Sequence record: MH383160
Direction: 5' to 3' (one strand)
Source: Escherichia phage UB
DNA: 64,000 bases
In this document: piece after piece, positions 12,552 to 27,420 of the stretch
Position numbering within the stretch: the first letter of the stretch is position 1
How the letters are laid out: every line of letters starts with the position of its first letter
Made by a program: the position numbers and the translations under genes
The notes under the pieces: model-generated
Told to the model about the DNA's origin: nothing
What the model saw: the letters and a program-made list of their open reading frames with translations, nothing else
The model's database searches: none

Positions 12552-12581
12552 ATTATAGCAAAAAGGGTTGACCGAAGTCAA
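12552..12581 (-). promoter_or_regulatory. sigma70-type promoter (TTGACT-N18-TATAAT), -35 inside terminator hairpin
   Basis: Minus strand reads TTGACTTCGGTCAACCCTTTTTGCTATAAT. Confidence 0.5.
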
Positions 12582-12584
12582 CAC
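12560..12584 (-). terminator. UUCG-loop intrinsic terminator (degenerate copy)
   Basis: GTGTTGAC-TTCG-GTCAACCC + TTTTT on minus strand. Confidence 0.5.
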
Positions 12585-12602
12585 TTTTACAAAAAAAACC
12601 AT

Positions 12603-12929
12603 TCAGTACACACAATTACCAATATCAATATTTTTACCATTATAGGTAATTATATATTTTATCTTATTTGGTTTTATAACAAAAACTTTTAATTTTTGAT
12701 TTAATTTATCATTTGAAAAAATAGTATATGAACCACTCCCGTCTTTAAAAACTTCTTGACTTTCGAACATAAATTTCTTTCCATCAATTTTAGCAGCTTT
12801 TGTTGAAACATCCAAATACAGTTGATAAATCTTATCAGATTTTGAAGATTTACAAGTAGTTGATGATTCATTTTTTGCATTCACTGTTGTTGATAAACAC
12901 ATTAACATAACTAACATTAACTTTTTCAT
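12603..12929 (-). CDS. secreted small protein (signal peptide)
   Basis: N-terminal MKKLMLVMLMCLSTTVNA. Confidence 0.6.
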   Translation of the reverse strand: MKKLMLVMLMCLSTTVNAKNESSTTCKSSKSDKIYQLYLDVSTKAAKIDGKKFMFESQEVFKDGSGSYTIFSNDKLNQKLKVFVIKPNKIKYIITYNGKNIDIGNCVY

Positions 12930-12949
12930 TTTAATTAACCTCTTTTATT

Positions 12950-14413
12950 TTATAAAATTACTTCACCAAAAATACCATTAATATCACGTTCAATAATGTA
13001 CTCACCTTCATGTTTGGCTAAGAATTGTTTTATTACTTCAATTACATTTTGACGATGTATGTTGTTGTATGTTTCAGTATAACCATCACCTCTGTTATAA
13101 TAGCCAATATTTTTATGTGGTTTTCCACACAATGCAACAGTATGAACTTGTGTTTCTAACTCCGATGCCAAAAATCCCCCTTCTTCGGTGTGAAAAAAAA
13201 TAACTAATACATTAGTCCAAAAATTATCAACACCATACTCTTCTAAAAAAGATTTGTTAATTTTTTTAAGTCGGGGTTTGATACTGTTACCCTGTTGGGT
13301 TATTCCGAATTTATCCGATTCGTTTGTTTGATCAACGTTCATATATGAACGTGTAGGTTTGTTTTTCTTAAACCCGTACTCATTATACATTGAAAAACCA
13401 TATTCAAAACTGAAAAAATCTGCAATATTAATTTTTTGTTGAATTGAACTATCACTACGAGAATATAAAAACACACTACGGTAATTAGTGTATTCACCGT
13501 CCCAACCAATAAATGTAAACGTCACTTCATCAGTTGAGCGATTACATAATTCTTTTTTAATTTGATATTCACGCTGTTCTTTTGTCCAACGAAACCCGCC
13601 AGTACAGCGACAACTTAAATGCCCCTGTTTGAGTGTGTGCATTTCTTGCTCAAATTCACCAGTACATAAACCATTTTTTGTATATTCATCGTTTGCACAA
13701 ATTGGACATGAGTATACAAGTTTACTAAATCTCCCATAATCATTAACTGTATCACTACGCTTGAACGTGGTCTTTGGATGAAACTTACCAGTATTCATTA
13801 TTTCGTTAATGTGATTTTCCAATCCGTTATTGCTTTCACGATGATACTGTTTCTTTCTTTCATTCCCACATTTAACACATCCATCATTTGTACCATTCGA
13901 TCCAAATAAAATACCATTTATAGTTGCACTGTTCATGAGTTCATCTGGGTGATGTTCACATACAAGAGTTGGTTTATATGTATTACTTTTAATTATACCA
14001 GTTGGAATTGATAATAATTTCTTTCCAGTTTTTGAAATTTTTCTTTCTATTCGAATAATATATTGATAACGAGTCCATTTTGGTATCTCACTACAACCAC
14101 ATGGAATTATTGAATTCAAATATGACGATTGTGCAATAATATACACACCCAAACCATGCAATTGAACATCATTTGCACAAATTTTACAAATTTTAAGATA
14201 GAACTTAGCTTTGGTCTTTGGATTTCGAATTAATCCCAACAGACTTTCATCACATTCTGTATTAGTATCCTGCTCCAATTGATCAAATGAATCAGGAATT
14301 GGCAATTGTGGATGCTTTTCACGAAGAATGAATAACGAAATTCTAAATGCTTCTTCACTTTTTGCCAAGCTTAATGCATTTTCAACTTCAATTGAACGAT
14401 GTACTTTATACAT
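12950..14413 (-). CDS. hypothetical Cys-rich protein (possible zinc-binding / nuclease-like)
   Basis: 487-aa ORF with several CxxC pairs; no confident family assignment. Confidence 0.6.
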   Translation of the reverse strand: MYKVHRSIEVENALSLAKSEEAFRISLFILREKHPQLPIPDSFDQLEQDTNTECDESLLGLIRNPKTKAKFYLKICKICANDVQLHGLGVYIIAQSSYLNSIIPCGCSEIPKWTRYQYIIRIERKISKTGKKLLSIPTGIIKSNTYKPTLVCEHHPDELMNSATINGILFGSNGTNDGCVKCGNERKKQYHRESNNGLENHINEIMNTGKFHPKTTFKRSDTVNDYGRFSKLVYSCPICANDEYTKNGLCTGEFEQEMHTLKQGHLSCRCTGGFRWTKEQREYQIKKELCNRSTDEVTFTFIGWDGEYTNYRSVFLYSRSDSSIQQKINIADFFSFEYGFSMYNEYGFKKNKPTRSYMNVDQTNESDKFGITQQGNSIKPRLKKINKSFLEEYGVDNFWTNVLVIFFHTEEGGFLASELETQVHTVALCGKPHKNIGYYNRGDGYTETYNNIHRQNVIEVIKQFLAKHEGEYIIERDINGIFGEVIL

Positions 14414-14456
14414 TTAAGGTTCCCATTTATTATCATATGATGAATAACAAAAAATT

Positions 14457-14696
14457 TCAAATTGAATTTGATAATATACCTTTCCAGTACTGAACCCGTC
14501 CAGCACCATTAATTTTAGCTTTAATCTTATCTTTTTCGACAAGACCTTCTTTGTAATCAATTGAAGTATTATCACACTTAATTACATCTAAGTCAAGTAC
14601 TTCTTGGGTAGTTAATGATGTATTATCTGCGATTTGTTGTAGAGTAATTACATCAGTACCGAAGTATTCTGCTAAACGTATAAAAGATAGTTTCAT
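14457..14696 (-). CDS. hypothetical protein
   Basis: 79-aa ORF immediately downstream of a terminator-promoter cassette with GAGAGG RBS. Confidence 0.55.
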   Translation of the reverse strand: MKLSFIRLAEYFGTDVITLQQIADNTSLTTQEVLDLDVIKCDNTSIDYKEGLVEKDKIKAKINGAGRVQYWKGILSNSI

Positions 14697-14722
14697 GTAT
14701 TACCTCTCGTTTCGATAAAATA

Positions 14723-14752
14723 ATTATAGCAAAAAGGGCTGACCGAAGTCAA
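14723..14752 (-). promoter_or_regulatory. sigma70-type promoter, -35 TTGACT in terminator arm, -10 TATAAT
   Basis: Minus strand TTGACTTCGGTCAGCCCTTTTTGCTATAAT; leader near-identical to cassette at 16.0 kb. Confidence 0.55.
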
Positions 14753-14755
14753 CCC
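14731..14755 (-). terminator. UUCG-loop intrinsic terminator
   Basis: GGGTTGAC-UUCG-GTCAGCCC + UUUUU on minus strand. Confidence 0.7.
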
Positions 14756-14761
14756 TTTATG

Positions 14762-15121
14762 TTATTCTAAGTCACTCATAGTACTAATAGTTAATCCCAT
14801 TTCTTCTGCAATGTTGCATAGCAAACCAACAGCATTACGAAGAATATCAGTGTTGTCCACCGAGAATGATGAGTTTTCATTTACAGTTGAAGACTCAATG
14901 TAGTACTCAAAATAACGAGAAGTTGAACGCACAACTTTAACACCTTCATACTTCTGTAGTTCAGAGTTGATACGCTCGATTAGTGAATCTTCCAGTACTC
15001 GATAGTCACCATTCATTCCACGTTTCCATCCATCAGCAGGACGGAAATAAAAAGTTTTTGTACGTTGAATTGTTGAGATTGTTAGTGGGTTGTATTCTGC
15101 GATTTCACTTAAAGATGCCAT
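14762..15121 (-). CDS. hypothetical protein
   Basis: ATG with GAGGAA RBS; promoter just upstream. Confidence 0.6.
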   Translation of the reverse strand: MASLSEIAEYNPLTISTIQRTKTFYFRPADGWKRGMNGDYRVLEDSLIERINSELQKYEGVKVVRSTSRYFEYYIESSTVNENSSFSVDNTDILRNAVGLLCNIAEEMGLTISTMSDLE

Positions 15122-15147
15122 GTTGTATTCCTCATTTGGTGATGTAC

Positions 15148-15176
15148 ATAATACAGAAAGATAGAACAGGTGTCAA
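15148..15176 (-). promoter_or_regulatory. sigma70-type promoter TTGACA-N17-TATTAT
   Basis: Minus strand TTGACACCTGTTCTATCTTTCTGTATTAT. Confidence 0.55.
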
Positions 15177-15227
15177 TGTTTATATCTAAAATATCCAAAT
15201 ACTTTGGTGTAGCACATACTACATCAA

Positions 15228-15422
15228 CTAATCCTCGCTGAAGACAACAATAAGGAATGACACGAACAATGCCGCATAACAAGGAGCTATCTTCATGTAC
15301 CACGGGACTTCATAATACCATGTACCCAATTCATCCCACGAAAAGAGTATACTCAAACCGAAGCCGATTAGCGATAGTACAATAAAAGAAATCCAGAAAC
15401 GCTTTGAATATACTAATAACAT
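15228..15422 (-). CDS. small membrane protein
   Basis: ATG with AAAGGAACA RBS; hydrophobic. Confidence 0.5.
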   Translation of the reverse strand: MLLVYSKRFWISFIVLSLIGFGLSILFSWDELGTWYYEVPWYMKIAPCYAALFVSFLIVVFSED

Positions 15423-15460
15423 GTTATGTTCCTTTGTGTAACCGAAGTCAACCCTTTCCT

Positions 15461-15976
15461 TTAATAATTATTCATTTCATCTTTGATTTGTTCTTCAATT
15501 TCGTCGAACATATCAGTACTAGATTCGTTCTTACTACTTACGTTCTGCATATCTTTAACGTACTGTGGACATTCAACATCAGTAAACTTATACCACGTAG
15601 GCTTCATCTGGAGCTTCTCAATCAAACGATCACGAGACATTTTAATCTCTGACTCCGTTGGTACGTAGTCATTACAAAACTCAGCAGGGAAGCCGCTAAT
15701 GTCGTTTACTTCAGTGTTTTGAATCTTCATACCACGACGCAGACATTCGTTGACAATATCAATATGACGCTTCTGTAAGTACAATAACTTGTTGTAGAAG
15801 AATGTTACATGACCTGAACCCAACAGGTAAGTACTGTTAATTTTGAAATCACGAACTCGCTTACGTGCTTGAACGTGTTTTTGTACAGCACCAAATACAC
15901 GTGGGAGTTCACGATATTCAGCCATCAGATGTTGGTCAGCAAGTTCTTTAACGTGTACTAAGTTAATGCGTGTCAT
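15461..15976 (-). CDS. denV: pyrimidine-dimer DNA glycosylase / AP lyase (T4 endonuclease V family)
   Basis: [47 protein letters not shown] matches T4 DenV from memory. Confidence 0.85.
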
Positions 15977-16004
15977 GTATTCATCCTCTCGTTTCGATGA
16001 AATG

Positions 16005-16034
16005 ATTATAGCAAAAAGGGCTGACCGTAGTCAA
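16005..16034 (-). promoter_or_regulatory. sigma70-type promoter in terminator-promoter cassette
   Basis: Minus strand TTGACTACGGTCAGCCCTTTTTGCTATAAT, then conserved leader CATTTCATCGAAACGAGAGG. Confidence 0.55.
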
Positions 16035-16037
16035 CCC
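16013..16037 (-). terminator. intrinsic terminator hairpin (CGUA/UACG loop variant), T-runs both sides
   Basis: GGGCTGAC-CGTA-GTCAACCC flanked by A5 and T6. Confidence 0.7.
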
Positions 16038-16444
16038 TTTTTTCTTTCAATTAAACATAATCTACCAGCATGTACCATGCGATGGTGATTAGAACAAAGA
16101 ATTACACACTTTCGAATTTCATCTTTGATAGATTCTCGACTTTTACTGAACATAGAACTTGGTGTATGTTCTTTGGTATTAGGTTCAAGATGATGAAAGT
16201 CTAAACATTCTGGATACTTCATCATGCAAATACTACAACCATAAAATGATTTAACTCTGGTCATGAAATCTTTATTTTTTCTTTTGATTTCTTCAAGTTT
16301 TTTTACATCAGTTTTTTTATTTCTGGTTTTCTTACTGGTAATATTACTACAACATTTGCATGTATTTCTTTGTTTCCCAGTATCACTTCTTATACCAAAT
16401 TCACTAATGTCTTTTTCAATATTACACGTGATACACTTCTTCAT
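16031..16444 (-). CDS. HNH endonuclease
   Basis: Cys-rich N-terminus plus HNH core ...DFHHLEPNTKEH...ILCSNHHRMVH. Confidence 0.75.
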   Translation of the reverse strand: MKKCITCNIEKDISEFGIRSDTGKQRNTCKCCSNITSKKTRNKKTDVKKLEEIKRKNKDFMTRVKSFYGCSICMMKYPECLDFHHLEPNTKEHTPSSMFSKSRESIKDEIRKCVILCSNHHRMVHAGRLCLIERKKG

Positions 16445-16746
16445 GGTTTAACCCATTTATTCAACAATTCACCCAACTTCACAATCTCATACCCATCCAG
16501 ATAGCCATAGGAACACTCAGGTGTTTCATAAGTTGAACCATCATGGATACCTTGACATTGGCTTTTGGAACGTTCAAGCAATCGTTGCAGTACTGATACG
16601 TCATCAAGAACGTAATACAAGTTAGCATATGGGTCCGTCACAATACAGTACTTAAACATGCCAAATGTATCAATCGATTTTTCAACCTTAGCAAATTGTT
16701 TCTTTTCTTTATTATACAATGCGTACATATTAATCTCCATAATCAA
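16441..16746 (-). CDS. hypothetical protein
   Basis: 101-aa ORF, start overlaps upstream stop. Confidence 0.55.
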   Translation of the reverse strand: MIMEINMYALYNKEKKQFAKVEKSIDTFGMFKYCIVTDPYANLYYVLDDVSVLQRLLERSKSQCQGIHDGSTYETPECSYGYLDGYEIVKLGELLNKWVKP

Positions 16747-17101
16747 GTTTAACTAACTTACCATCCAGATACCCAAAGTTTTCTGGCTTCGCATCTGAAT
16801 AGAAGAAGTCAGTACTTAACTCTGAATTCAATGCTAAAGCACACAACTCCACCCAAAATAAACCCCTATGTTGCACTGGCTTACAACGTTTCTGTACAGT
16901 TACTAGTCCAGTACATGATGACCACAATGTAGGACAGATACTACTATCACTACGATTAGAGTACTGCATCCACGAACGTTCATTGAGGTTAGCTATCATT
17001 CCCGTTAAGAATAACTTCCAGCTTTTGAAGGTTGGAATCTTGATAGCGTATTCCCCAATGAGGATAACAGTTCGGGTTGCACCTTTCAAATCTATATTCA
17101 T
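16730..17101 (-). CDS. hypothetical protein
   Basis: 123-aa ORF. Confidence 0.55.
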   Translation of the reverse strand: MNIDLKGATRTVILIGEYAIKIPTFKSWKLFLTGMIANLNERSWMQYSNRSDSSICPTLWSSCTGLVTVQKRCKPVQHRGLFWVELCALALNSELSTDFFYSDAKPENFGYLDGKLVKLDYGD

Positions 17102-17105
17102 AATA

Positions 17106-17282
17106 TTAGTACGAATCAGATTCCCAGTACTCGATTGCTTCTTTCAGCAATTCTTTAGCACGTTGTTTTGCAATGCGAGCGGGTAACAGATATGTGTACA
17201 TTAACTGACGCTTCACTTCATTCAGTGAAAGCTGTTCATGGTACAGTGCATCCATCAGTCGATTACGAGTACGTAGTTTCAT
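17106..17282 (-). CDS. small hypothetical protein (58 aa, below ORF-track cutoff)
   Basis: ATG preceded by AAGGATAA; fills a 190-bp gap. Confidence 0.45.
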   Translation of the reverse strand: MKLRTRNRLMDALYHEQLSLNEVKRQLMYTYLLPARIAKQRAKELLKEAIEYWESDSY

Positions 17283-17293
17283 ATAAGTTATCC

Positions 17294-17848
17294 TTATTTC
17301 AAAGAATCATAGTAAGCAGTGTCAAAGATTGGAGTCATAATAACATAGTCAATACGGTCAATGTAAGTTGAACTCCACATTTCTGGTTTGTCATATAACT
17401 GACGCTCGCGTTCATTCATACGAGTCAGTACTTCTTCCAATTTACTACGTGAATCCATCAATGTATTACTCGAACCATAAGTGAAGTACTCAGTCCAATG
17501 ATATTCATATTCAGTACTGATAGATTGAATAGTACCATCTTTGAAATGAGCTAAGGCATAACCTTTCTCTACAAAGTTATCAGGTGGAAGAACACCATCT
17601 GGATTAGTTTTCAATGCTTGTGCTAACTTTTCTTTAATTTCAGTTAACGTGCATACTGAACGAATGTTCTTCAGGTTTGATACTTGAAAATCACTGTACT
17701 TTCCAAAGAAAAAGACACGCCAATCTTTAGGTTCATTATCAGATACGGTAGCATCAGGGTGATGGGCGAGTAAACGAAGAAGGCCAGCTTTGTGACCGTT
17801 AATGTAGATTTCATGGATGTGGTTAGCAGTTTTCTTAAAAGTAATCAT
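17294..17848 (-). CDS. hypothetical protein
   Basis: 184-aa ORF with consensus promoter upstream. Confidence 0.6.
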   Translation of the reverse strand: MITFKKTANHIHEIYINGHKAGLLRLLAHHPDATVSDNEPKDWRVFFFGKYSDFQVSNLKNIRSVCTLTEIKEKLAQALKTNPDGVLPPDNFVEKGYALAHFKDGTIQSISTEYEYHWTEYFTYGSSNTLMDSRSKLEEVLTRMNERERQLYDKPEMWSSTYIDRIDYVIMTPIFDTAYYDSLK

Positions 17849-17895
17849 GGTAGATCCTCGATTGTAGGGATGAGAAGTTCATCCCCTTGATAAGC

Positions 17896-17923
17896 ATTAT
17901 ACAGTACTGAATGTGTTTGTCAA
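17896..17923 (-). promoter_or_regulatory. sigma70-type promoter TTGACA-N16-TATAAT with CAGTACTG in spacer
   Basis: Minus strand TTGACAAACACATTCAGTACTGTATAAT. Confidence 0.6.
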
Positions 17924-17924
17924 C

Positions 17925-18320
17925 TCAAAATAAATTCATTTCATGTGCGTATTGTGGTTCAAGATAAGATAAGTTTTTGAAACTGTCTTTCAATTCTGCA
18001 TCATCTACGTACACAGTACCAGGTACATTCCCCATAGTGAAGCCAACCCAAACAGTCATGTTTCCAGTTCCTAAGCGGGGCATTGATAGCGTCCCGTCAG
18101 GTGAAACATCAAACGCTACACTAAAGTCATCCGTTACAACTTCCGAACCATTTTCCAGAATAATACAACCACGTTCTTTAAGCTTCTGAATGTGGATAGC
18201 AGCCTCTACAGCACGTTTAAAGTTATAATAAGACTCTTTATCCTCGAACATTGATTGTTTAACCAGACGCTTGTTTAGCTCGGTTACTTTGTGCATTTGA
18301 CGCATTACTTCAACTCCCAC
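17925..18320 (-). CDS. hypothetical protein
   Basis: 131-aa ORF. Confidence 0.55.
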   Translation of the reverse strand: MGVEVMRQMHKVTELNKRLVKQSMFEDKESYYNFKRAVEAAIHIQKLKERGCIILENGSEVVTDDFSVAFDVSPDGTLSMPRLGTGNMTVWVGFTMGNVPGTVYVDDAELKDSFKNLSYLEPQYAHEMNLF

Positions 18321-18559
18321 AGTTGTAGAATTTCATAAGAGCCTGGTGGTGCTGGATTGATAATCTCAGGGTATTCAGTACTGTTAGGATTACCACCAGC
18401 ATTGAACTCAGCAAGTAATAATTCGAGTTCATTCCTATCATGAACAACAAACACGCAATATCCAGTTCCTTCTTCAAGAACTGTAGTTGATCCCGCACAA
18501 TCCCATACGGTATCAATACATAATAATTCTTTAGTGTTTTTATTACGCAACGCAAACAT
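18305..18559 (-). CDS. hypothetical protein
   Basis: 84-aa ORF; preferred over overlapping 18310..18723. Confidence 0.45.
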   Translation of the reverse strand: MFALRNKNTKELLCIDTVWDCAGSTTVLEEGTGYCVFVVHDRNELELLLAEFNAGGNPNSTEYPEIINPAPPGSYEILQLWELK

Positions 18560-18568
18560 ATATGTCTC

Positions 18569-18937
18569 CTATCGATTCGGCATATTCTTTCGTAGTCGCA
18601 AGAGAAATTCAACCACTGACCATGTTGTAATGAAGGCAATATAAGTTGCAAGGAATCCAGTAAGAATGAATGCAACCAGCGTACTACCATTTGGGGAATC
18701 AGTTTTAATGCCGATGACACCATCGGCTACAGTGAAACATGTAGCCATTAATGTGTAACCTACGTACAACACAAAGAAAAACTCATTCTCCATTGAAGGA
18801 TAGAAACGGTTAAACACTTTATAAAATTTAAAGTACAGTAGGATTATACCAACAAAGGCATAGAATGTAAACAGTGTTGTTATAATATATGAGATTAGGT
18901 TCAAATTATACATATCAACGCTCCGGTAGATTATCAC
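18569..18937 (-). CDS. small membrane protein (FK.YK.LF.R.YP family)
   Basis: Hydrophobic; motif YFKFYKVFNRFYP shared with two neighbours. Confidence 0.6.
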   Translation of the reverse strand: MIIYRSVDMYNLNLISYIITTLFTFYAFVGIILLYFKFYKVFNRFYPSMENEFFFVLYVGYTLMATCFTVADGVIGIKTDSPNGSTLVAFILTGFLATYIAFITTWSVVEFLLRLRKNMPNR

Positions 18938-19262
18938 GTAATGTTTTAATTCGATGATACATTTTCATACCAATATTACCAAAGATACCATATCCAAGTA
19001 CTAAAATGTATGCAATAAGCATAGTAATAATTACTATAGTGCCAAAACTATAATGTACACTACTGATACCCATTGTAGTTTCAACGATTATTTGAGAAAC
19101 TGAAAGAATCAAAAGTACAACTACAATTGGATGATTTGGGTACATTCGGTTGAACAACGTTTTGTACTTAAAGAAGCACAGTACTCCACCGAATAAGAAG
19201 TAAACAATGTAAATGCAAGCAACAGCATAGGCAAACATGTTAGTGTAATAAATCATTACCAA
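18915..19262 (-). CDS. small membrane protein (same family)
   Basis: FFKYKTLFNRMYP. Confidence 0.6.
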   Translation of the reverse strand: MVMIYYTNMFAYAVACIYIVYFLFGGVLCFFKYKTLFNRMYPNHPIVVVLLILSVSQIIVETTMGISSVHYSFGTIVIITMLIAYILVLGYGIFGNIGMKMYHRIKTLRDNLPER

Positions 19263-19265
19263 TCC

Positions 19266-19604
19266 TTACTTTTCAGGGATATTAGAACGCCATATATCAA
19301 TGCGATGAACTAGTCCAAAGAACAACCATACTGGAACGGCAGCTATCATAACAACAAATGAAAACCCAGTCAAGACCGATACCAGATTTAATTCATCAGT
19401 ACTATACCCACATATCAGTACTTCTAATATTCCCCACGTACATGCACAAAACATCAAGAATGAAATTGGGGCATCATAGTAGATACGTTCATATAAAGTA
19501 GTGTATCGGAAGAATGCAATAATGTAGCAAAACATATAATACACCCAAACCAAAGATACTACATAAAATGATACTTTGTTTATTAATTCAAAATATTGTT
19601 CCAT
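19266..19604 (-). CDS. small membrane protein (same family)
   Basis: FFRYTTLYERIYY. Confidence 0.6.
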   Translation of the reverse strand: MEQYFELINKVSFYVVSLVWVYYMFCYIIAFFRYTTLYERIYYDAPISFLMFCACTWGILEVLICGYSTDELNLVSVLTGFSFVVMIAAVPVWLFFGLVHRIDIWRSNIPEK

Positions 19605-19606
19605 TT

Positions 19607-19888: not shown

Positions 19889-19949
19889 GATTTTATCCTT
19901 TACCGCAATTTTTATGGTTTATTAAGAATACACCAGAACATCAGTTCTG

Positions 19950-20591
19950 TCAATAAAAAACTGGATCTTCTTCAGTAATTGGTATTTCTCTACGCACATC
20001 ACACGAAAGAGGATCAGTAATGAATACATTCCCATCTTTATCCATCATCACATTACTTGAATGAATGTCTGGTACAAAACGCCCGTGAAACTCTTTCATG
20101 ATGTTAGCAGCGACCGTTGCAATAGCAATCTCTTCAGAATTTCCACGCATATCATTCACTGAAGTAGCGTACTGACCAGCATGTGCATAAGAATATAAAT
20201 CTCCAATTTTAGTACTAACAAAGTCATCATAATTATTTTTTTGTTTAATTATAGGATAGTACTTGTCCATCTCATACCATCCAAAGTTTCCTTGTTCGTT
20301 TGCACTGTAAATCACTGGAAGAAACTTGGTTCCTGCGTTTTCAATGCAGTACTTTGCATAAGCACGAAAACCATCCCAGCGTGAAGTGGTTACTTTAAAT
20401 GCACGTCCAGGATAGTTTTTATGTTCAACTACTACAGAGTACATCCCCATTCCAAGCAAAGTAAGTCCAGCAGCTTTAACTTGTGGAAAGATTACGCGTT
20501 CAGCATAAGGAATATCAAACTCCATCGCACAACGAGTTTTTGATGGACGCAAAATGTCAATTAAAGTTTTGAATATTTCTTGCTTAGTCAT
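19950..20591 (-). CDS. protein kinase-like fold protein (putative)
   Basis: DIHSSN (D-x4-N catalytic-loop-like) followed by VFITDP; start moved to ATG 20591 with AGAGGA RBS because ATG 20624 lies inside the promoter -10. Confidence 0.5.
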   Translation of the reverse strand: MTKQEIFKTLIDILRPSKTRCAMEFDIPYAERVIFPQVKAAGLTLLGMGMYSVVVEHKNYPGRAFKVTTSRWDGFRAYAKYCIENAGTKFLPVIYSANEQGNFGWYEMDKYYPIIKQKNNYDDFVSTKIGDLYSYAHAGQYATSVNDMRGNSEEIAIATVAANIMKEFHGRFVPDIHSSNVMMDKDGNVFITDPLSCDVRREIPITEEDPVFY

Positions 20592-20619
20592 TACTTTATC
20601 CTCTGTAGTTAATATCAAC

Positions 20620-20649
20620 ATCATAACAAAAAAGGCTGACCGAAGTCAA
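20620..20649 (-). promoter_or_regulatory. promoter in terminator-promoter cassette (TTGACT-N18-TATGAT)
   Basis: Minus strand TTGACTTCGGTCAGCCTTTTTTGTTATGAT. Confidence 0.45.
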
Positions 20650-20652
20650 CCC
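20627..20652 (-). terminator. UUCG-loop intrinsic terminator
   Basis: GGTTGAC-UUCG-GTCAGCC + U-run. Confidence 0.7.
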
Positions 20653-20660
20653 TTTTATTA

Positions 20661-21080
20661 TCATTTACAGTTTTCTATAACTATTGCACGTTTTAGTATT
20701 TTACTTTCATAAACATACTTAAGATGACCTTCTTCACGAATACGATTGAACACATATCCTAGTTTATCTTTTAGTACTGAAGCGGTATCAATGTCAAGAT
20801 TAACTTCAACCCCTCCTGTTAATTTAACTTTATATGTAAAGCTAAAAGCATCACCAGATTCAACCAATGGGACTACTTGTTCATACGTATTCAACATAAC
20901 TCGTTCATCATTAACTAAATTATATATTACTATATCACAAGTTTTTACCCCAATTTCCTCTAATGTAGGAGCATTATCTACTATAACATCTTTTACTGTA
21001 TTTGCAACCTGTTTAGCATCTGCTGCATATACATTAAAACTAAAAAGTACTAAAATAATACTTAAAAAAATCTTTTTCAT
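20661..21080 (-). CDS. secreted protein (signal peptide)
   Basis: MKKIFLSIILVLFSFNVYA. Confidence 0.6.
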   Translation of the reverse strand: MKKIFLSIILVLFSFNVYAADAKQVANTVKDVIVDNAPTLEEIGVKTCDIVIYNLVNDERVMLNTYEQVVPLVESGDAFSFTYKVKLTGGVEVNLDIDTASVLKDKLGYVFNRIREEGHLKYVYESKILKRAIVIENCK

Positions 21081-21089
21081 TATATATCC

Positions 21090-21413
21090 TTATTTTATTT
21101 TACATGTCATATCGGGTTGTGCTTGTTTATTATTTTTAAACGGATTAGGTTTTTTATCTTTCTTTTTATCTTTTAAAGGTTTTTTGTCTTCTTTTTTATC
21201 TTTATCTTTGTCTTTTTTATTTTTATCAGGTTCAGAGGGAGTATTACATTGTGCTGGGGGTTGATTAGTTGGAGTACAGCTATTGTCTGATGGGAGTATT
21301 ACTTCTTTACAATTGTAAAATAGTAAACTTTTATTTGTGGTTAAATTATGAAAACGATAGTTACGTTCATTATTATAATAAATTGTTTTAGTACTTTCAA
21401 TGTCATTGCACAT
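21090..21413 (-). CDS. hypothetical protein with Lys/Asp-rich low-complexity tail
   Basis: KKDKDKDKKEDKKPLKDKKKDKK. Confidence 0.45.
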   Translation of the reverse strand: MCNDIESTKTIYYNNERNYRFHNLTTNKSLLFYNCKEVILPSDNSCTPTNQPPAQCNTPSEPDKNKKDKDKDKKEDKKPLKDKKKDKKPNPFKNNKQAQPDMTCKIK

Positions 21414-21423
21414 TGCTACTGAA

Positions 21424-21675
21424 TCACCGGAACTCTTTTTCTATTCCCATTACATCAGTCTTACGCTCAGATAGTATACCTGAAGTATATGAATCTTTGT
21501 TGTCAAACGCATTAAATCCAATAGTTCTGTCGGTGTCGTGTATTATTCCTTTTGTATATGAGGTAGTATAGAACTCCCCATTTCTGAAATCCTGCCTTGC
21601 TACGGAGCAATGATAATCTGCACCATAAGCAGTACTGGAAAATAATACAATTCCAAATATAATATATTTTTTCAT
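21424..21675 (-). CDS. secreted small protein (signal peptide)
   Basis: Start at internal ATG giving MKKYIIFGIVLFSSTAYG with AGAGGG RBS. Confidence 0.55.
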   Translation of the reverse strand: MKKYIIFGIVLFSSTAYGADYHCSVARQDFRNGEFYTTSYTKGIIHDTDRTIGFNAFDNKDSYTSGILSERKTDVMGIEKEFR

Positions 21676-21704
21676 TGTAATCCCTCTTCTTAATTCCTCT
21701 TTTG

Positions 21705-21733
21705 TATTTACAAAAAAAGGCTGACCGAAGTCA
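21705..21733 (-). promoter_or_regulatory. promoter in terminator-promoter cassette
   Basis: TTGACT in hairpin arm, 17 nt, TAAATA. Confidence 0.4.
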
Positions 21734-21736
21734 ACC
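21712..21736 (-). terminator. UUCG-loop intrinsic terminator
   Basis: GGTTGAC-UUCG-GTCAGCC + U7. Confidence 0.7.
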
Positions 21737-21746
21737 TTTTGTTTTA

Positions 21747-23294
21747 TCATTTACCGTATTTGCTCATGATGTCCTTTTCCCAAGGAGTTACATTTCCATT
21801 TTCGTAATCACGGAAAGAGTCATCAAGTGTAGTCAATGCATAATCATATGCCTCACCGGATTCAACATCAATATCAACAGCACCATTCACTACATCAGTC
21901 CACGCTTTTTGTAGTTTACGAGCGTTGTTACCAACTTTATCTTTAATCCAACTAAGATTTCGGTTTATACTCTTCTTATCAGCACCAGCTTTTTCACCAA
22001 CATCTGCAACCCATTGCATTAATTTCTGTAGTTCGTTATGGGATTTTTCAGTCATTTGGCGGTCTTGTGACAGTTCAGCTTCCATGTCATCAATTTCTTC
22101 GTCTGAATGAACATCTTTCTGTTCAACTGCACCTTCTTCATCTGCACGCTTTAGATAACCATCTGGTGTTACCTTCTCACCATGTTCAGCTTCATACTTT
22201 TTCATAGTGTTGAATGCAGCATCCATAGCTGTTACGAAGCGGCTTTTCTCACCTTGTACATAAGATTTAAGTACGCTGTTAACAGCGTCAGATACGAGCT
22301 TAACCTTATCGTCTTTACCTTCTAAACGGTTTTCAAGTTTAGCTAGTACATTCTTGACTTGCTGTGCATTAGCACGGTCTGCTTTACCAATACTATCAAA
22401 AGTTTTAAGAATACTTTCCAGATTAACATCATCGTGTGAGTGTTCATCAAACTCAATATCATTATTTTCGTCTTCATCCTTGAGCGTTAATCCCATTGAT
22501 GTGAGGTCATCAGCAGCACTTGACATTGACATACGAACTGCACGAGAATCATTTACATCATCTACATTTTCAATTGCCATATCAATAATGTACAGTGCTT
22601 TCTCTAAGTCTGTATATTGTTTAGCTTGATTGATAATATCGTTCACAAACTTAGCACCTAAGTAATCATTTACTTCACGGAATTCGTCTTCAGACATTCT
22701 TCCACTAGGTTTGCTTGGTTGTTGATCGGTCTTTTGTGGTAAGGATTTCTGTTTACCTTCAAGTGCACGCATGATAGTACTGAATACTTCAGTAGGTTCA
22801 GTACTGGTATTTCCACTCATTGCATCAAGTACAGCTTGTGCTTTGACTTTTAATTCTTCTTTAGGTACAGATTGCAATTCTTTCACAATACCTTGGATAA
22901 GTTGTGGTTTATTAGCAAAAATCTTACCTAACTTATCAGACAGTTCTTTGACAGGGTTAACCGCCTTTGGTGCTTCTTGTTTTGGTTCTTCTTTCGCAGG
23001 AGCAGACTTTTCTTTTTCTTCACGTTCCATATCAGCTAGGCGTTGTTTTTGTGTAGCATTAAGAAGTCCCAATGAATTAACATAACGTAGCTTTTCTAGC
23101 TCAGTCATATTGGAAGTATCAGTGCCTTGTGTTGCTACTGTGTTTGCTTTACCAGCTTCACCAGTCCCCATGTTTCTAGAACCTTTAGAACCTTGACCTG
23201 CCATATGTGAATTAGGTCTGCGATTTTTTTCTGACCACTTCTCGCTGTGTCCAGAAATGGTAGCACCATTTTTTGATTTGAAATTATCTGGCAT
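21747..23294 (-). CDS. large acidic hypothetical protein (N-terminal domain paralogous to 24185..24568)
   Basis: 515 aa, Glu/Lys/Asp-rich; YVNSLGLLNATQKQ...KELQSVPKEELK shared with neighbour. Confidence 0.65.
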   Translation of the reverse strand: MPDNFKSKNGATISGHSEKWSEKNRRPNSHMAGQGSKGSRNMGTGEAGKANTVATQGTDTSNMTELEKLRYVNSLGLLNATQKQRLADMEREEKEKSAPAKEEPKQEAPKAVNPVKELSDKLGKIFANKPQLIQGIVKELQSVPKEELKVKAQAVLDAMSGNTSTEPTEVFSTIMRALEGKQKSLPQKTDQQPSKPSGRMSEDEFREVNDYLGAKFVNDIINQAKQYTDLEKALYIIDMAIENVDDVNDSRAVRMSMSSAADDLTSMGLTLKDEDENNDIEFDEHSHDDVNLESILKTFDSIGKADRANAQQVKNVLAKLENRLEGKDDKVKLVSDAVNSVLKSYVQGEKSRFVTAMDAAFNTMKKYEAEHGEKVTPDGYLKRADEEGAVEQKDVHSDEEIDDMEAELSQDRQMTEKSHNELQKLMQWVADVGEKAGADKKSINRNLSWIKDKVGNNARKLQKAWTDVVNGAVDIDVESGEAYDYALTTLDDSFRDYENGNVTPWEKDIMSKYGK

Positions 23295-23333: not shown

Positions 23334-24107
23334 TTATATATTACCATAGATATCCATCCTAGTCAATCTATATTTGTCATTATCAATGATAGTTAATAAT
23401 CTATCTATATCTTTTACGTCTATTGTTTCTGTATAACCACATTTAAACACTGATTTGTTCAAAAACTTACATTTTATTTCTTTTTTAATTATTTTTTCTA
23501 ATTCATTAATTAAATTTCCGTCATTGGAAAAATAACAAATATAAGGAACTGATCGATATTTGTTGGCATTATATTTTCTAAATCTATTTTTACAATTTCC
23601 TGTAATGCCAAATTTATATGATACTAAATTACCAATAGTATCATAAATTTCATTTATATATAAAAATCCAGGTTTGTTGATATCATAACCAGTCTTACTA
23701 CATGATGGACAATTTGTATTAGTATTAATAAAATGATTATAAGAACATTTCCAAGAAGGATGATCAATTATATCACAGTTCAATTCAAGAATAGTGTTTA
23801 TAGAGCCATTAAAAATATATTCTTTACAAGTATATTTTTTCTCTTTACATTTTTGTATAACTCTATCACGGGCAGTTTGTTCTTTGAGAATGTTTCTCCC
23901 ATTACATTCAGGACACCCAGTTCCTTTGTAAATAAACTTTTTAAAAGAACAATTCCATCGTTCGTGTTCTGGATTGGGGCATTTTAAAATTAGTCTTGTG
24001 TTCGTGTTTATATAAACAAATTCTTCACATTTGTAGTTTTTGTCATTGCATATTTTATATACTTTTTCTTCAGCTTCTTTTTGTGTCAATTTAATACCAC
24101 TAGCCAT
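23334..24107 (-). CDS. T5orf172/MUG113-type (GIY-YIG-like) domain protein with Cys-rich zinc-ribbon-like repeats
   Basis: GFLYINEIYD..YKFGITGN..RFRKY core; N-terminal CPNPEH..C, GCPECNG. Confidence 0.6.
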   Translation of the reverse strand: MASGIKLTQKEAEEKVYKICNDKNYKCEEFVYINTNTRLILKCPNPEHERWNCSFKKFIYKGTGCPECNGRNILKEQTARDRVIQKCKEKKYTCKEYIFNGSINTILELNCDIIDHPSWKCSYNHFINTNTNCPSCSKTGYDINKPGFLYINEIYDTIGNLVSYKFGITGNCKNRFRKYNANKYRSVPYICYFSNDGNLINELEKIIKKEIKCKFLNKSVFKCGYTETIDVKDIDRLLTIIDNDKYRLTRMDIYGNI

Positions 24108-24147
24108 GAAATATCATCCTTGAATCTTTGTTATTTCATATATTTAC

Positions 24148-24175
24148 TATATAAAAAAAGGTTGACCTTAGTCAA
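24148..24175 (-). promoter_or_regulatory. promoter in terminator-promoter cassette
   Basis: TTGACT in hairpin arm, ~17 nt, TATATA. Confidence 0.4.
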
Positions 24176-24178
24176 CCC
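24153..24178 (-). terminator. intrinsic terminator hairpin (loop variant), bidirectional
   Basis: GGTTGAC-CTTA-GTCAACC flanked by A7 and T5. Confidence 0.65.
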
Positions 24179-24184
24179 TTTTTA

Positions 24185-24568
24185 TTACTTCTTGAACTTA
24201 TGTTTTTCACTTTCGATTGCATTCACGATTTCATCATGAATTTTACGAAGATTGTGAGTTTTCTTTAGAGATTCATGTAATGCACGGAATGCAGAGTGTA
24301 CAGTTGCTTTAAAGTGCTCTTTAGGAGTTACTTTAAGTTTCTCGATAATATCACGTACATAAATTGGGTGATCTTCAAACACACGATTTAGCTCATGGCC
24401 TAGTGATTCTAGACTGAATGCTTTTTCACGTGAAGGGCGATCATGTGCAAGACTTTGGTCCGGTTTTAGAAGACCTAGTGAATCTAGATACTTGTGCTTA
24501 TGTGCATTGTCTAGACCAGAAATATCAACATCATGTGATGGATCTTTCTTATTCCATTTATCAACCAT
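24185..24568 (-). CDS. hypothetical protein (paralog of N-terminus of 21747..23294)
   Basis: YLDSLGLLKPDQ and KLKVTPKEHFK motifs. Confidence 0.6.
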   Translation of the reverse strand: MVDKWNKKDPSHDVDISGLDNAHKHKYLDSLGLLKPDQSLAHDRPSREKAFSLESLGHELNRVFEDHPIYVRDIIEKLKVTPKEHFKATVHSAFRALHESLKKTHNLRKIHDEIVNAIESEKHKFKK

Positions 24569-25737: not shown

Positions 25738-25942
25738 ATTTAACGTGTGGTTTATATAGCATAATTAACCCATTTTTAAGTACAATGATTGTTGCTCTGT
25801 TAGTAATCGAAACGTTTTTAATTATACTTTTTTTATATGTTTCAACATATTTCTCTTCATAATTTATACATTTAACATATTCTTTTTGTTTAGCACTTAC
25901 AACAGTACTGAATAATATCAGTACAAGTACTATATATTTCAT
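25721..25942 (-). CDS. secreted small protein (signal peptide)
   Basis: MKYIVLVLILFSTVVSA. Confidence 0.55.
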   Translation of the reverse strand: MKYIVLVLILFSTVVSAKQKEYVKCINYEEKYVETYKKSIIKNVSITNRATIIVLKNGLIMLYKPHVKCEIVN

Positions 25943-25994
25943 TACTATACCTTATAAACAAAAAGGAATTCATTTAAGAATTCCTATTTTACAA

Positions 25995-26288
25995 TCATTT
26001 ATCTAACATACCATTGTGCAAACGTTCATATACTTCAGTTCGACGCAAATTCACAATATCTTCTGCGTATTTTAATGTAAATGCCCATGCTTTTGGATGT
26101 ACGTTAAGCTTCATACGAATTCGATTTTTCATCAACTCTCCACTTAAACGAATAAATTCGTGTACACCACGACTACCGTATTCAGTAATTAAATCATTAA
26201 TGTACATATCACGAAGAGTTTCATCTGCACATTCTTTAACCATTTCTACGTCAGCGACGATGCTTTCATTAACTGAAGTACTGATCAT
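25995..26288 (-). CDS. hypothetical protein
   Basis: 97-aa ORF. Confidence 0.55.
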   Translation of the reverse strand: MISTSVNESIVADVEMVKECADETLRDMYINDLITEYGSRGVHEFIRLSGELMKNRIRMKLNVHPKAWAFTLKYAEDIVNLRRTEVYERLHNGMLDK

Positions 26289-26300
26289 TTTTAATTTACC

Positions 26301-26567
26301 TTATTTAAATTCGACTGTAATTTTATCACCTTCAACTACGAACTTACAGTTGTAGCGACGTGCCATATCCATGTACATATGCTCAGAGTACCAAGGAACA
26401 TCAATAATCGGATGCTCTGCATATTGTAGAACTTCACGGTCGCCCACTGTAGTAATGATGAAAGGAATGTTCATCTCTCGTAAAAACAGTTCAGCACCAG
26501 GAGAACGATTAATAAATTCAGTATCATTACGTAAAGTAAATCCATTATATTGTAATTTAAGCTTCAT
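26301..26567 (-). CDS. hypothetical protein
   Basis: 88-aa ORF. Confidence 0.55.
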   Translation of the reverse strand: MKLKLQYNGFTLRNDTEFINRSPGAELFLREMNIPFIITTVGDREVLQYAEHPIIDVPWYSEHMYMDMARRYNCKFVVEGDKITVEFK

Positions 26568-26581
26568 ATGTTATCCTCTAT

Positions 26582-26926
26582 TCAATACCATTCTTTAAAA
26601 CCATTAAGTTCGGCTACGTGAGTGATTATAACACATATAACATTCAGGTCAAGTATAATTTGATCATAATTTAATTTTATACGATCATCATTATATGCTC
26701 TAAAAACTACATCGTAATCAAAGAAATTTGCGTTTTCATCATTCATTGAAACGATTCGGTATCTACGTCTTCCATCTGTATTGAATATAGTTAAACACTG
26801 TTGAAACTTTCTCATTAACTGTTTAGATAGGATATTATAATATTCAATATCTTTTTGTGAATTACGTGGGTCATCAGGAAGATAGAATGAAACAAATTTC
26901 TTTAATTCTATTTGAGTTTTATCCAT
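26582..26926 (-). CDS. hypothetical protein
   Basis: 114-aa ORF. Confidence 0.55.
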   Translation of the reverse strand: MDKTQIELKKFVSFYLPDDPRNSQKDIEYYNILSKQLMRKFQQCLTIFNTDGRRRYRIVSMNDENANFFDYDVVFRAYNDDRIKLNYDQIILDLNVICVIITHVAELNGFKEWY

Positions 26927-27359
26927 ATATTACCTCATGTGTTTCTCTTTTACTTTGTCGGAACTCATCCTTTGCTTCCTTAACTGACATGATACGAACT
27001 AATTTAGCACTACCGCAATAGTACTGAACCTGATTACGACCAATGTCTACATGGTGGTCTGGAACTTCATATACAGATATAGCAAACCCAGCACGATGCA
27101 ATTTACCCAAGTCCATAGTGAAGAATCTGAACAAATCTTTCAAACTTTGACAACCAAATACCCATCCACTTTTGATTGAATAGATCCCATCCTCAGTTGG
27201 TTCAGGTTGGAATTGAGAAGGTGTAGTCATAAGCAAACGGTCAAATCCATTTTTAGTACTGTATCTGGTTGAATACCGTGCAAACGGACCTACAGTTCGT
27301 GCAGGATCTAAGTTAGGTTCAATGTAACTAAATTTAAGTTCAAAACGATATACATACAT
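26919..27359 (-). CDS. hypothetical protein
   Basis: 146-aa ORF, first gene after terminator-promoter cassette. Confidence 0.6.
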   Translation of the reverse strand: MYVYRFELKFSYIEPNLDPARTVGPFARYSTRYSTKNGFDRLLMTTPSQFQPEPTEDGIYSIKSGWVFGCQSLKDLFRFFTMDLGKLHRAGFAISVYEVPDHHVDIGRNQVQYYCGSAKLVRIMSVKEAKDEFRQSKRETHEVIYG

Positions 27360-27387
27360 AATTAAAATCCTCTAATTTATTAAGAGA

Positions 27388-27417
27388 ATTATAACAAAAA
27401 AGGCTGACCGAAGTCAA
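27388..27417 (-). promoter_or_regulatory. promoter in terminator-promoter cassette (TTGACT-N18-TATAAT)
   Basis: Minus strand TTGACTTCGGTCAGCCTTTTTTGTTATAAT. Confidence 0.55.
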
Positions 27418-27420
27418 CCT
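27395..27420 (-). terminator. UUCG-loop intrinsic terminator
   Basis: GGTTGAC-UUCG-GTCAGCC + U6. Confidence 0.7.

Follow-up and report, generated by a model that had tools for sequence, protein, structure and literature searches.

The stretch of DNA that we analysed (the window) comprises 64,000 nucleotides of Escherichia phage UB (MH383160). It comes from an Asteriusvirus: a 10-kb query aligned with coliphage 121Q over 96% of its length at 97% identity. Within it, a short cassette recurs between genes. Allowing up to 3 mismatches to the pattern GGGYTGACCGAAGTCAACCC, we found plus-strand matches at 12565, 14736, 16018, 20633, 21718, 24159 and 27401; none was expected by chance, as judged from 100 shuffles. 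Read on the minus strand, these seven copies at 12.56 to 27.40 kb have the consensus AAAA-GGGTTGAC-UUCG-GUCAGCCC-UUUUU. A covariance model built from 52 copies and run unfiltered over the whole window recovered the same seven copies, at 54 to 75 bits, and also matched a variant at 35827-35884 on the minus strand (E=0.0035); beyond these, it returned no further cassette in the 64 kb. The seven intergenic sites proposed by an earlier, sequence-only reading are thus borne out, and the variant it placed at 35.86 kb is a diverged copy. The seven cassettes cluster within 15 kb, always between minus-strand ORFs, and most of the flanking genes are hypothetical in the annotation of relatives or lack a Pfam match. 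No Rfam family reached its gathering score at the cassettes; in the window only five tRNAs (48-52 kb) did so.

All seven copies share one anatomy on the minus strand: an A-run of 3-6 nt, an 8-bp stem with 4-5 G-C pairs around a 4-nt loop, and 5-7 consecutive T. Predicted hairpin free energies range from -11 to -20 kcal/mol, and their z-scores relative to shuffled sequences from -3.7 to -6.2. The description of the element as a UUCG hairpin with a U-run holds for hairpin and T-run in every copy and for the loop in five; the other two have UACG (16.02 kb) and UAAG (24.16 kb) instead. The upstream ORF stops 0-20 nt before the hairpin or within it. Each copy has the G+C-rich hairpin after a stop codon, directly followed by a U-tract, by which an intrinsic terminator is recognized in sequence. 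The U-tract is short, and a G interrupts it before the -10. In six copies a spacer of exactly 18 nt separates TTGACT from a -10 hexamer; this reads TATAAT in four of them, while the 20.63-kb copy has TATGAT and the 24.16-kb copy TATAGT. In all six, the two hexamers together match the sigma-70 consensus at 10-11 of 12 positions, and five of the six have TG at -15/-14. An 18-nt spacer is suboptimal for sigma-70, for which the TG extension should compensate. The exception to the proposed TTGACT and TATAAT-like pair is the 21.72-kb copy, where the only candidates, TAAATA and TGTAAA, are not credible as a -10 and do not make a sigma-70 extended -10. The sequence-only reading had also assigned the -35 hexamer to the 3′ arm, which is correct in plus-strand notation only; on the transcribed strand the hexamer consists of the 5′ arm and the first loop base. 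GAGG-type ribosome-binding sites lie 6-9 nt ahead of the ATG.

The first cassette (12552-12592, minus strand, as are all that follow) has an A-run, a hairpin at 12584-12565, GUGUUGAC-UUCG-GUCAACCC, and T5. Its -35 TTGACT is at 12581-12576 and its extended -10, TGCTATAAT, ends at 12552, with a predicted transcription start at about 12545. An AAA-ATPase-like ORF has its start codon at 12523, and the upstream ORF stops at 12603. In the second cassette (14723-14763), the hairpin GGGUUGAC-UUCG-GUCAGCCC at 14755-14736 (-18.3 kcal/mol) is combined with a -35 at 14752-14747 and again with TGCTATAAT, the -10 hexamer occupying 14728-14723; the leader AUCGAAACGAGAGG leads to a start codon at 14696. The third cassette (16005-16045) has its UACG hairpin at 16037-16018 (-19.9 kcal/mol), a -35 at 16034-16029 and TATAAT at 16010-16005, and precedes a denV-type pyrimidine-dimer glycosylase (start codon 15976). 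It has the leader of the second copy, ATCGAAACGAGAGG being common to both, as had been claimed. The upstream ORF, 16031-16444, ends with the TGA inside TTGACT and matches in position and length an HNH endonuclease annotated in JP4. The fourth cassette (20620-20660; UUCG hairpin 20652-20633) has a -35 at 20649-20644 and TGTTATGAT with the -10 hexamer at 20625-20620, followed by the probable start codon (20591) of a T7 gp0.7-like protein kinase, so named in relatives. The fifth (21705-21745) is a half cassette, with a UUCG hairpin at 21737-21718, T7 and TTGACT; the next gene starts at 21675, and this copy probably acts as a terminator only. The sixth (24146-24186) has a perfect stem with the UAAG loop at 24178-24159, T7, a -35 at 24175-24170 and TATAGT at 24151-24146 without TG; the start codon is at 24107. 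The seventh (27388-27428) has a UUCG hairpin at 27420-27401, T6, a -35 at 27417-27412 and TGTTATAAT with the -10 hexamer at 27393-27388. Its downstream start codon is at 27359, and here too the TGA in TTGACT (27414) is the stop of the upstream ORF. In the diverged copy (35821-35884), directly downstream of a sigma-factor gene (35884-36849), the hairpin GGUUGGC-UUAU-GCCAACC at 35875-35858 (-19.8 kcal/mol) has a stem in which a compensatory change has replaced A-U by G-C. This change abolishes the -35 (TTGGCT); an extended -10, TGATATAAT, is present further on, at 35829-35821.

Comparison with seven close relatives revealed that four of the seven cassettes coincide with homology breakpoints. Homology with five relatives ends at 12587/12588 in the first cassette; SP27 and JP4 have breakpoints at 14714-14767, around the second; homology with 121Q, G17, PBECO4 and SP27 ends at 16050/16051, at the third; and at the sixth, homology resumes at 24142/24149 in all seven relatives. 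Within 35 nt of a hairpin centre we counted 5 of 21 breakpoint clusters, where 0.47 were expected (P ~5e-5 under a uniform null, which exaggerates the significance, as breakpoints tend to fall in intergenic DNA). In SP27, a single chimeric cassette stands in place of two cassettes and three genes of the window (2.1 kb). Its upstream half is that of the 14.73-kb copy and its leader that of the 12.56-kb copy, with the crossover within an identical stretch of about 20 bp from the 3′ arm to the leader. In JP4, an extra gene begins at the position of the 14.73-kb cassette. Together with the shared leader, these breakpoints in gene content between close relatives support the modular shuffling suggested earlier. 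Cassette recombination is only one source of mosaicism, and 15 or 16 of the 21 breakpoint clusters lie away from cassettes. Several of the variable genes resemble homing endonucleases.

The sequence identifies the cassette as a PeSL (promoter-early stem-loop), a kind of element already described from T4-like phages. As in PeSLs, we find a predicted early promoter with a stem-loop, an AT-rich tract ahead of the -35, a stop codon at the 5′ edge and a Shine-Dalgarno sequence and start codon at the 3′ edge, clustering in a variable region with many small ORFs that lack a known function, location at indels and replacements with a chimeric cassette at a junction, and relatedness in sequence. The carrier is not a T4-like phage, as Asteriusvirus lies outside the Straboviridae, but this concerns where PeSLs were first discovered and not how they are defined. 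The same cassette is also present in Vequintavirinae and Herelleviridae. Comeau, Arbiol and Krisch (2014, PMC4122927) described PeSLs in T4-like Vibrio phages of the KVP40/nt-1 group. These have nearly the sequence and layout of our copies: A3-4 G3, TTGAC, a loop, GTCAG and C3 T3-4, with TAWWAT after 17-18 nt, followed by a leader (for example CATCGAAACGAGA), a ribosome-binding site and ATG. Their neighbours, too, are small ORFs without known function, and their sites, too, coincide with indels among closely related phages. The nt-1 intergenic regions that the 2014 paper names, at 44630-44698, 54921-55011 and 55534 onwards, carry AAAAAGGGTTGAC-AGAT-GTCAGCCCTTTTTTGTATCAT and similar sequences, score 42-45 bits with our covariance model and have the leader CATCGAAACGAGA in common. 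Unlike these, the present copies belong to an Asteriusvirus jumbo phage rather than to the Straboviridae, mostly have a cUUCGg tetraloop, and have a -10 nearer to consensus. Arbiol et al. (2010, PMC2839356) reported PeSLs from two coliphages, phi1 and RB49, and reporter assays showed both promoter and terminator activity for those of phi1 (PMC2839356). Stem-loops that overlap the -35 have been described (PMC2839356, PMC4122927), and make up one of the five phi1/RB49 subclasses. These PeSLs recombine, yielding deletions, insertions and mini-circles (PMC2839356). The phi1/RB49 elements are G-run/C-run hairpins whose position relative to the promoter is variable, whereas the cassettes described here follow one fixed design in which TTGAC itself forms the stem.

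Parts of this element have been annotated in relatives. In Rak2-like phages, GGGTTGACTTCGGTCAGCCC followed by a T-run is given as a rho-independent terminator in the consulted parts of the CBB paper (PMC5259590, Table S8) and of the G17 record, and the same sources contain ARNold calls for this hairpin in G17 and CBB. The Munch annotation also names the hairpin a terminator, and the record of fHe-Yen9-03 marks TGCTATACT as a -10. Among the CBB tables consulted, Table S5 classes a sister element as an RpoD-type promoter and assigns it an UP element, and RpoD-like promoters with an UP-like element are stated there to cluster in the presumed early region (PMC5259590). The hairpin is the same as ours, but in these excerpts terminator and promoter are given as separate features, and we found no mention of their overlap or of a role in recombination in those parts of the CBB paper (PMC5259590) and the G17 record. 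In the literature, we did not find a PeSL report for the Asteriusvirus group.

We consider it probable, at roughly 0.78, that these are PeSL-type terminator-promoter cassettes in the early, hyperplastic region of a 121Q-like jumbo coliphage and that they also serve as recombination substrates. One alternative, which we regard as unlikely, is that the element is a promoter only, and that the hairpin stabilises or marks processed upstream 3′ ends or is a dyad tolerated in a strong promoter. This would fit the short U-tracts, the listing of the sister element in the CBB Table S5 excerpt as a plain RpoD promoter, and two environmental phage contigs (L003 and L011) in which hairpin and -10 are kept and TTCTGG replaces the T-run. 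The latter suggest that the hairpin may do more than intrinsic termination, for example protect RNA 3′ ends. However, the exact 18-mer hairpin occurs at 57 unique sites in IMG/VR, with a -10 at 16-18 nt from the -35 in 52 and, in addition, a T-run directly after the stem in 48. Hairpin and T-run also persist at 21.72 and 35.86 kb without a working promoter; the former lacks the -10 and the latter the -35, suggesting that the two functions are separable. A phi1 PeSL stem-loop terminated about as well as rrnB T1 (PMC2839356). Selection also appears to act on the RNA. Among 38 copies, from which those ascertained by the exact 18-mer were left out, pairing is retained on the sense strand in 299 of 304 stem cells, as G·U in 40, and 43 would mismatch in an antisense reading. 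The outer stem pairs show double changes from G-C to A-U and U-A, and the loop is of UNCG or GNRA type in 17 of the 38. Wobble-compatible transitions, by which the 3′ arm changes, and the preference for these loops argue for selection of a stable RNA hairpin, against a promoter alone. Tuerk and colleagues are said to have described, in PNAS in 1988, C(UUCG)G hairpins in intercistronic regions of phage T4, which are similar in being exceptionally stable cUUCGg tetraloop hairpins between phage genes; those are reportedly elements of RNA stability or termination and not carriers of a -35 hexamer.

It is still less probable that the cassette is only an intrinsic terminator, with TTGACT and TATAAT incidental in AT-rich DNA and the downstream genes served by read-through or other promoters. 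A generic sigma-70 scan did find no overall excess of promoters in the region (109 sites against 98.8 expected from shuffles), and the annotators of G17, Munch and CBB, in the entries consulted, named the hairpin a terminator alone. The case for a promoter rests on the fixed geometry and not on such a scan: 91 of 95 copies have a spacer of 17 or 18 nt, 74 of the 95 have TG ahead of the -10, and the 5′ arm TTGAC is near-invariant (one copy has TTGAT) while the 3′ arm drifts. In bacterial genomes (596 Gb) the 18-mer occurs at 81 sites, of which 28 bear a T-run; a -10 accompanies it at just 2 of the 81, against the 52 of 57 in phages (Fisher p=2e-25); among 18-mers that bear a T-run, a -10 is present in 48 of 51 phage and 2 of 28 bacterial sites. 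The link to a promoter is therefore no automatic consequence of being a terminator. The phi1 PeSL promoters, moreover, were too strong to be cloned without mutations. Least probable of all is a DNA-level inverted repeat, the operator of a dimeric phage regulator (early shut-off) or the target of a site-specific recombinase, with an incidental RNA hairpin: the dyad does overlap the -35, a classic repressor position, the cassettes do lie at gene-content breakpoints, and the PeSL authors left site-specific recombination open, but the two half-sites differ systematically (83 of 95 copies have T·G, a mismatch in a DNA palindrome, at stem position 4), loops vary in length and sequence, outer pairs covary rather than conserve their sequence, one regulator common to the unrelated phage families that have the cassette is unlikely, and the SP27 crossover falls in a stretch of identity of the kind that homologous exchange predicts.

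The terminator-promoter cassette that we favour would work as follows. Host sigma-70 RNA polymerase would transcribe the minus strand, and the nascent RNA would fold into an 8-bp hairpin of the type GGGUUGAC-UUCG-GUCAGCCC, with A/U pairs extending the stem, followed by 5-7 U. Hairpin and U-run would terminate or strongly attenuate the upstream unit just past its stop codon. The same DNA would be a promoter, with the A-run as an UP-like element, the 5′ arm and first loop base as the -35 box TTGACT, the remaining loop, 3′ arm and T-run as a 17-18-bp spacer, and TGnTATAAT as an extended -10, so that a new transcript would begin about 7 nt past the -10 and would carry a leader of 20-30 nt and a GAGG-type ribosome-binding site. 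The hairpin and U-run after stop codons and the fixed -35/-10 geometry support the original idea of a module shared by termination and re-initiation, and both activities are predicted from them. The conserved U·G at stem position 4 may make the element one-directional. Copies that bear it have a sense hairpin whose stability exceeds that of the antisense hairpin by 4-7 kcal/mol; the pair would thus keep the sense hairpin, weaken its antisense counterpart and turn the antisense -35 from TTGAC into CTGAC.

Each block of genes would in this way become an insulated unit. Since about 45-75 bp are near-identical between copies, the cassettes would also be substrates for homologous recombination, by which the intervening genes could be inserted, deleted or swapped. 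What is new here is the presence of a PeSL-type element in a 121Q-like jumbo coliphage; the kind of element itself is known.

A pattern search of the window allowing up to three mismatches matched GGGYTGACCGAAGTCAACCC on the plus strand at 12565, 14736, 16018, 20633, 21718, 24159 and 27401, exactly the seven intergenic sites that a sequence-only reading had listed; the pattern did not occur in 100 dinucleotide-preserving shuffles. Nearly all ORFs here lie on the minus strand, on which the sites read AAAA-GGGTTGAC-TTCG-GTCAGCCC-TTTTT-G(C/T)-TATAAT. A covariance model built from 52 copies and run over the whole window with filters off recovered the seven copies at 54 to 75 bits, together with the variant that had been claimed at 35.86 kb (35827-35884, E = 0.0035), and no further ones. 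In this variant, a compensatory change from A-U to G-C keeps the stem and destroys the −35. Folding energies of the hairpins range from −11 to −20 kcal/mol (z-scores −3.7 to −6.2). Their loop, reported as UUCG, is indeed UUCG in five copies but UACG at 16.02 kb and UAAG at 24.16 kb. Six copies have the anticipated −10 at 18 nt after TTGACT (TATAAT in four, TATGAT in one, TATAGT in one), five of them with TG at −15/−14; the 21.72-kb copy has no credible −10, so the spacing ascribed to all copies does not extend to it. The −35 had been assigned to the 3′ arm, which is correct only in plus-strand notation; on the transcribed strand, it is formed by the 5′ arm and the first loop base. Every copy is intergenic, and at 16.02 and 27.40 kb the TGA inside TTGACT is the stop codon of the upstream ORF. 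Rfam scans covering the window and four related loci gave no family at the cassettes, and a generic promoter/terminator scan was uninformative by itself, giving 109 promoter-like sites against 98.8 expected.

Across 96% of its length, the stretch from 12000 to 22000 shares 97% identity with Escherichia phage 121Q, and it also matches PBECO4, phAPEC6, G17, SP27, JP4, and slurp01, all of them Asteriusvirus, Rak2-like jumbo phages. The cassette region encodes mostly small hypothetical proteins, plus a T7 gp0.7-like protein kinase and a denV-type glycosylase, and a sigma factor gene lies further along the same strand. This gene content is consistent with an early region, and in the related phage CBB RpoD-like promoters with UP-like elements have been assigned to a region of this kind (PMC5259590). 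Five tRNA genes cluster at 48130-52070 on the minus strand.

We propose that the cassette is a dual-use module, an RNA terminator or attenuator and a DNA promoter, and at the same time a recombination repeat; we put the probability of this reading at about 0.78. As RNA, the cassette would terminate or attenuate the upstream unit. As DNA, its UP-like tract, −35, spacer, and extended −10 would serve the next unit, and as a repeat it would be a substrate for homologous recombination. The comparisons establish the anatomy of the cassette, its coupling to a −10 in phages, the pairing of the sense strand, the junctions of recombinants, and its identity with an element already published; termination, initiation, and the purpose of a wobble pair in the stem are inferred.

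The 5′ arm, TTGAC, is nearly invariant, a single copy reading TTGAT, and such constancy is what a −35 would be expected to produce. Drift in the 3′ arm takes the form of transitions that preserve G·U pairing. Among 38 copies not ascertained by an exact 18-mer, 299 of the 304 stem cells are paired on the sense strand, 40 as G·U, and 43 cells would become C·A mismatches in an antisense reading, counts to be taken with the caveat that fitting an alignment to a model biases it in favour of the model's structure. The outermost pair, left free by the search pattern, changes from G-C to A-U or U-A in 14/95 copies, and the non-seed loops include 10 UNCG and 7 GNRA. That the element is a promoter and nothing else fits the data less well than the dual-use module and is improbable. 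Of the 95 copies, 83 have a U·G at stem position 4; in the five window copies that do, the sense hairpin exceeds its antisense counterpart in stability by 4-7 kcal/mol. The wobble pair may make the cassette one-directional, because a perfect palindrome would place TTGAC on the opposite strand, where a −10-like hexamer stands at the right distance in 29/93 copies.

We scanned the exact 18-mer GGTTGACTTCGGTCARCC in IMG/VR phage contigs and in 596 Gb of bacterial and archaeal genomes. The phage contigs held 57 unique sites, 51 with the T-run, 52 with a −10 at 16-18 nt, and 48 with both. The bacterial and archaeal genomes held 81, with the T-run at 28, the −10 at 2, and both at 2. Composite sites are thus 48/57 against 2/81 (Fisher p = 2e-25), and the comparison limited to T-run-bearing sites gives p = 2e-15. 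Judged from these sites, the 18-mer hairpin is an ordinary terminator in bacteria and is coupled to a −10 at promoter distance only in phages. Among the 95 unique copies, 49 have a 17-nt spacer and 42 an 18-nt one, and in 74 the −10 is preceded by TG. Given the phage coupling, a terminator alone accounts for the data less well than the dual-use module, and we consider it very improbable. A DNA-level protein site also fits worse than the module and is very improbable; we rejected its operator version on account of a systematic half-site asymmetry.

The sequence-only reading had also proposed modular shuffling of the cassettes, citing a leader common to the 14.7- and 16.0-kb copies, and CATCGAAACGAGA is present at both. 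BLAST comparison of window positions 8-32 kb with seven Asteriusvirus genomes bears the proposal out. Homology blocks end or start at 12587/12588, at 14714, 14745, and 14767, at 16050/16051, and at 24142/24149, coinciding with cassettes in four cases out of seven. Of the 21 breakpoint clusters, five lie no more than 35 nt from the centre of a hairpin, against an expectation of 0.47 (P about 5e-5, somewhat generous because the null is uniform whereas breakpoints favour intergenic DNA). SP27, the clearest case, has a single, chimeric cassette in place of 2.1 kb with three ORFs; its upstream flank and hairpin are those of the 14.73-kb copy and its leader that of the 12.56-kb copy. What lies between these two cassettes varies: the window and 121Q have one set of genes there, G17 and JP4 another, and phAPEC6 and slurp01 a third. 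JP4 also has an extra gene beginning at the 14.73-kb cassette position. Because many other breakpoints in the seven relatives lie away from cassettes, and several variable genes are annotated there as homing endonucleases, the cassettes are one source of mosaicism and not the sole one. The genes next to cassettes that differ between relatives include three on the minus strand: 12950-14413 encodes a 487-aa protein with a CapR homology domain; 23334-24107 encodes a 257-aa protein with a weak treble-clef zinc-finger match; and the ORF at 16031-16444, matching a JP4 HNH endonuclease, lacks a stop codon of its own, runs into the cassette, and ends at the TGA of TTGACT.

Elements of this class have been described in T4-like phages as promoter-early stem-loops (PeSLs) (Arbiol et al. 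2010, PMC2839356; Comeau et al. 2014, PMC4122927). They form five subclasses, one with a stem-loop overlapping the −35, cluster in hyperplastic regions, lie at indels between close relatives, recombine into mini-circles, and have promoter and terminator activity in lacZ fusions (PMC2839356, PMC4122927). The stem-loop consensus in phage nt-1 is A3-4 G3 - loop - C3 T3-4 (Comeau et al. 2014, PMC4122927). We examined nt-1 from 40 to 60 kb and found that the intergenic regions 44630-44698, 54921-55011, and 55534 onwards carry AAAAAGGGTTGAC-AGAT-GTCAGCCCTTTTTTGTATCAT and similar sequences, like the window cassette, and score 42-45 bits with the covariance model; the third also carries the CATCGAAACGAGA leader. 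Because of these likenesses, the window cassette is, by its sequence, the same element as the nt-1 PeSL. The cassette is real and its first interpretation was essentially right, and its class was already known. In a literature search that took in jumbo phages and GAP32, we met no account of PeSLs from Asteriusvirus or other Rak2-like phages; promoters and terminators go unmentioned in the RaK2 and fEgEco12 papers, and no phage paper with the literal hairpin sequence was found in full-text literature. The CBB supplement lists GGGTTGACTTCGGTCAGCCC plus T-run as terminators and a sister element, in a separate table, as an RpoD promoter, and in the text and tables consulted we found no mention of the overlap (PMC5259590). 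The G17 and Munch annotations call the hairpin a terminator. The fHe-Yen9-03 record marks TGCTATACT as a −10, in agreement with the cassette, and places the −35 elsewhere than at TTGACT.

Near-identical cassettes occur in RaK2, K64-1, GAP32, CBB, and the Eneladusvirus group; in Cronobacter phage CR3 (Vequintavirinae); in Aeromonas phage 65 and KVP40-like Vibrio phages (Straboviridae); in Brochothrix phage A9 (Herelleviridae, with a Gram-positive host); and in environmental contigs, one of which (L003, 118 kb) has no match among GenBank phages. These phages share essentially one unit of 40-75 bp, including the unusual U·G pair and, among those of Gram-negative hosts, the leader AUCGAAAC. A ATCGAAAC-type leader accompanies 20/95 copies, drawn from several groups of Gram-negative phages, and this sharing is a hint of transfer; the A9 copies lack the leader. 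Convergence on the only compact overlap of a cUUCGg terminator with TTGAC is a plausible alternative, because the design (TTGAC, cUUCGg, complement) leaves few free positions. The stronger claim, that a single standard part spreads horizontally as a pan-phage self-insulating boundary, carries genes from one virulent phage to another, unrelated one, and owes its wobble pair to selection for strict one-directionality, strikes us as rather doubtful. A predicted initial transcribed sequence, AUCGAAAC(G/A)A..., lies at 14700-14716 and 15982-15998 and recurs at cassette loci outside the window (L002, L006, L015, L017, L041, L042, L052). This leader is common to cassettes of Asteriusvirus, CR3-like, and nt-1-like phages, stands also downstream of Mot-box type (middle) promoters in nt-1, and may be either a leader element or a relic of shared ancestry.

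Other repeated modules were seen. Roughly 25 nt downstream of cassettes in 121Q outside the window (L012:1956-2200, 5650-5900, 8948-9200) and in other contigs (L002, L020, and L027) there is a conserved segment, CTAGCCCACAGGGTGC / CTAACCCATAGGGTG, followed by a second promoter-like site, AAAAGTACTTGCA-N17-TATAAT. The segment has no Rfam match; a small structured RNA is one possibility, promoters arranged in tandem another. The window has no match to AGTACTTG-N15-19-TATAAT, a second promoter class met downstream of cassettes elsewhere in 121Q. In 64 kb there are 173 occurrences of the palindrome AGTACT (for example at 3105, 8153, 8189, 17902, 46810, 46845, 62777, and 62835) against about 22 expected, the next commonest palindromic hexamer occurring 76 times, and the octamer CAGTACTG occurs 36 times in the window against 0.9. 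Since AGTACT is found in every reading frame of both strands and between genes as well, selection on it looks to act at the DNA level; we found no literature on the excess. Between tandem RCC1-like paralogues, a plus-strand module (843-861, 3297-3317, 5729-5747, 7005-7023) consists of a hairpin built from the AGTACT motif, GCCAGTAC-loop-GTACTGGC, then TTTTCTTTTTG and ATTAAATATAGTATAATGAATAAAGGAGG. It looks like another terminator-plus-promoter unit, possibly serving a different promoter class and copied along with the gene duplications.

For engineering, the cassette would offer a compact, directional terminator-promoter insulator, potentially reusable in synthetic constructs. PeSL-type elements reach well beyond T4-like phages, which raises the question of one cassette spreading between phage families versus repeated invention. 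For Asteriusvirus and other Rak2-like jumbo phages, whose current records, where they list cassette sites, call them terminators in one genome and promoters in another, the cassette provides a rule for annotating early transcription units, and recombination between cassettes explains part of the gene-content variation among these therapeutic-candidate coliphages.
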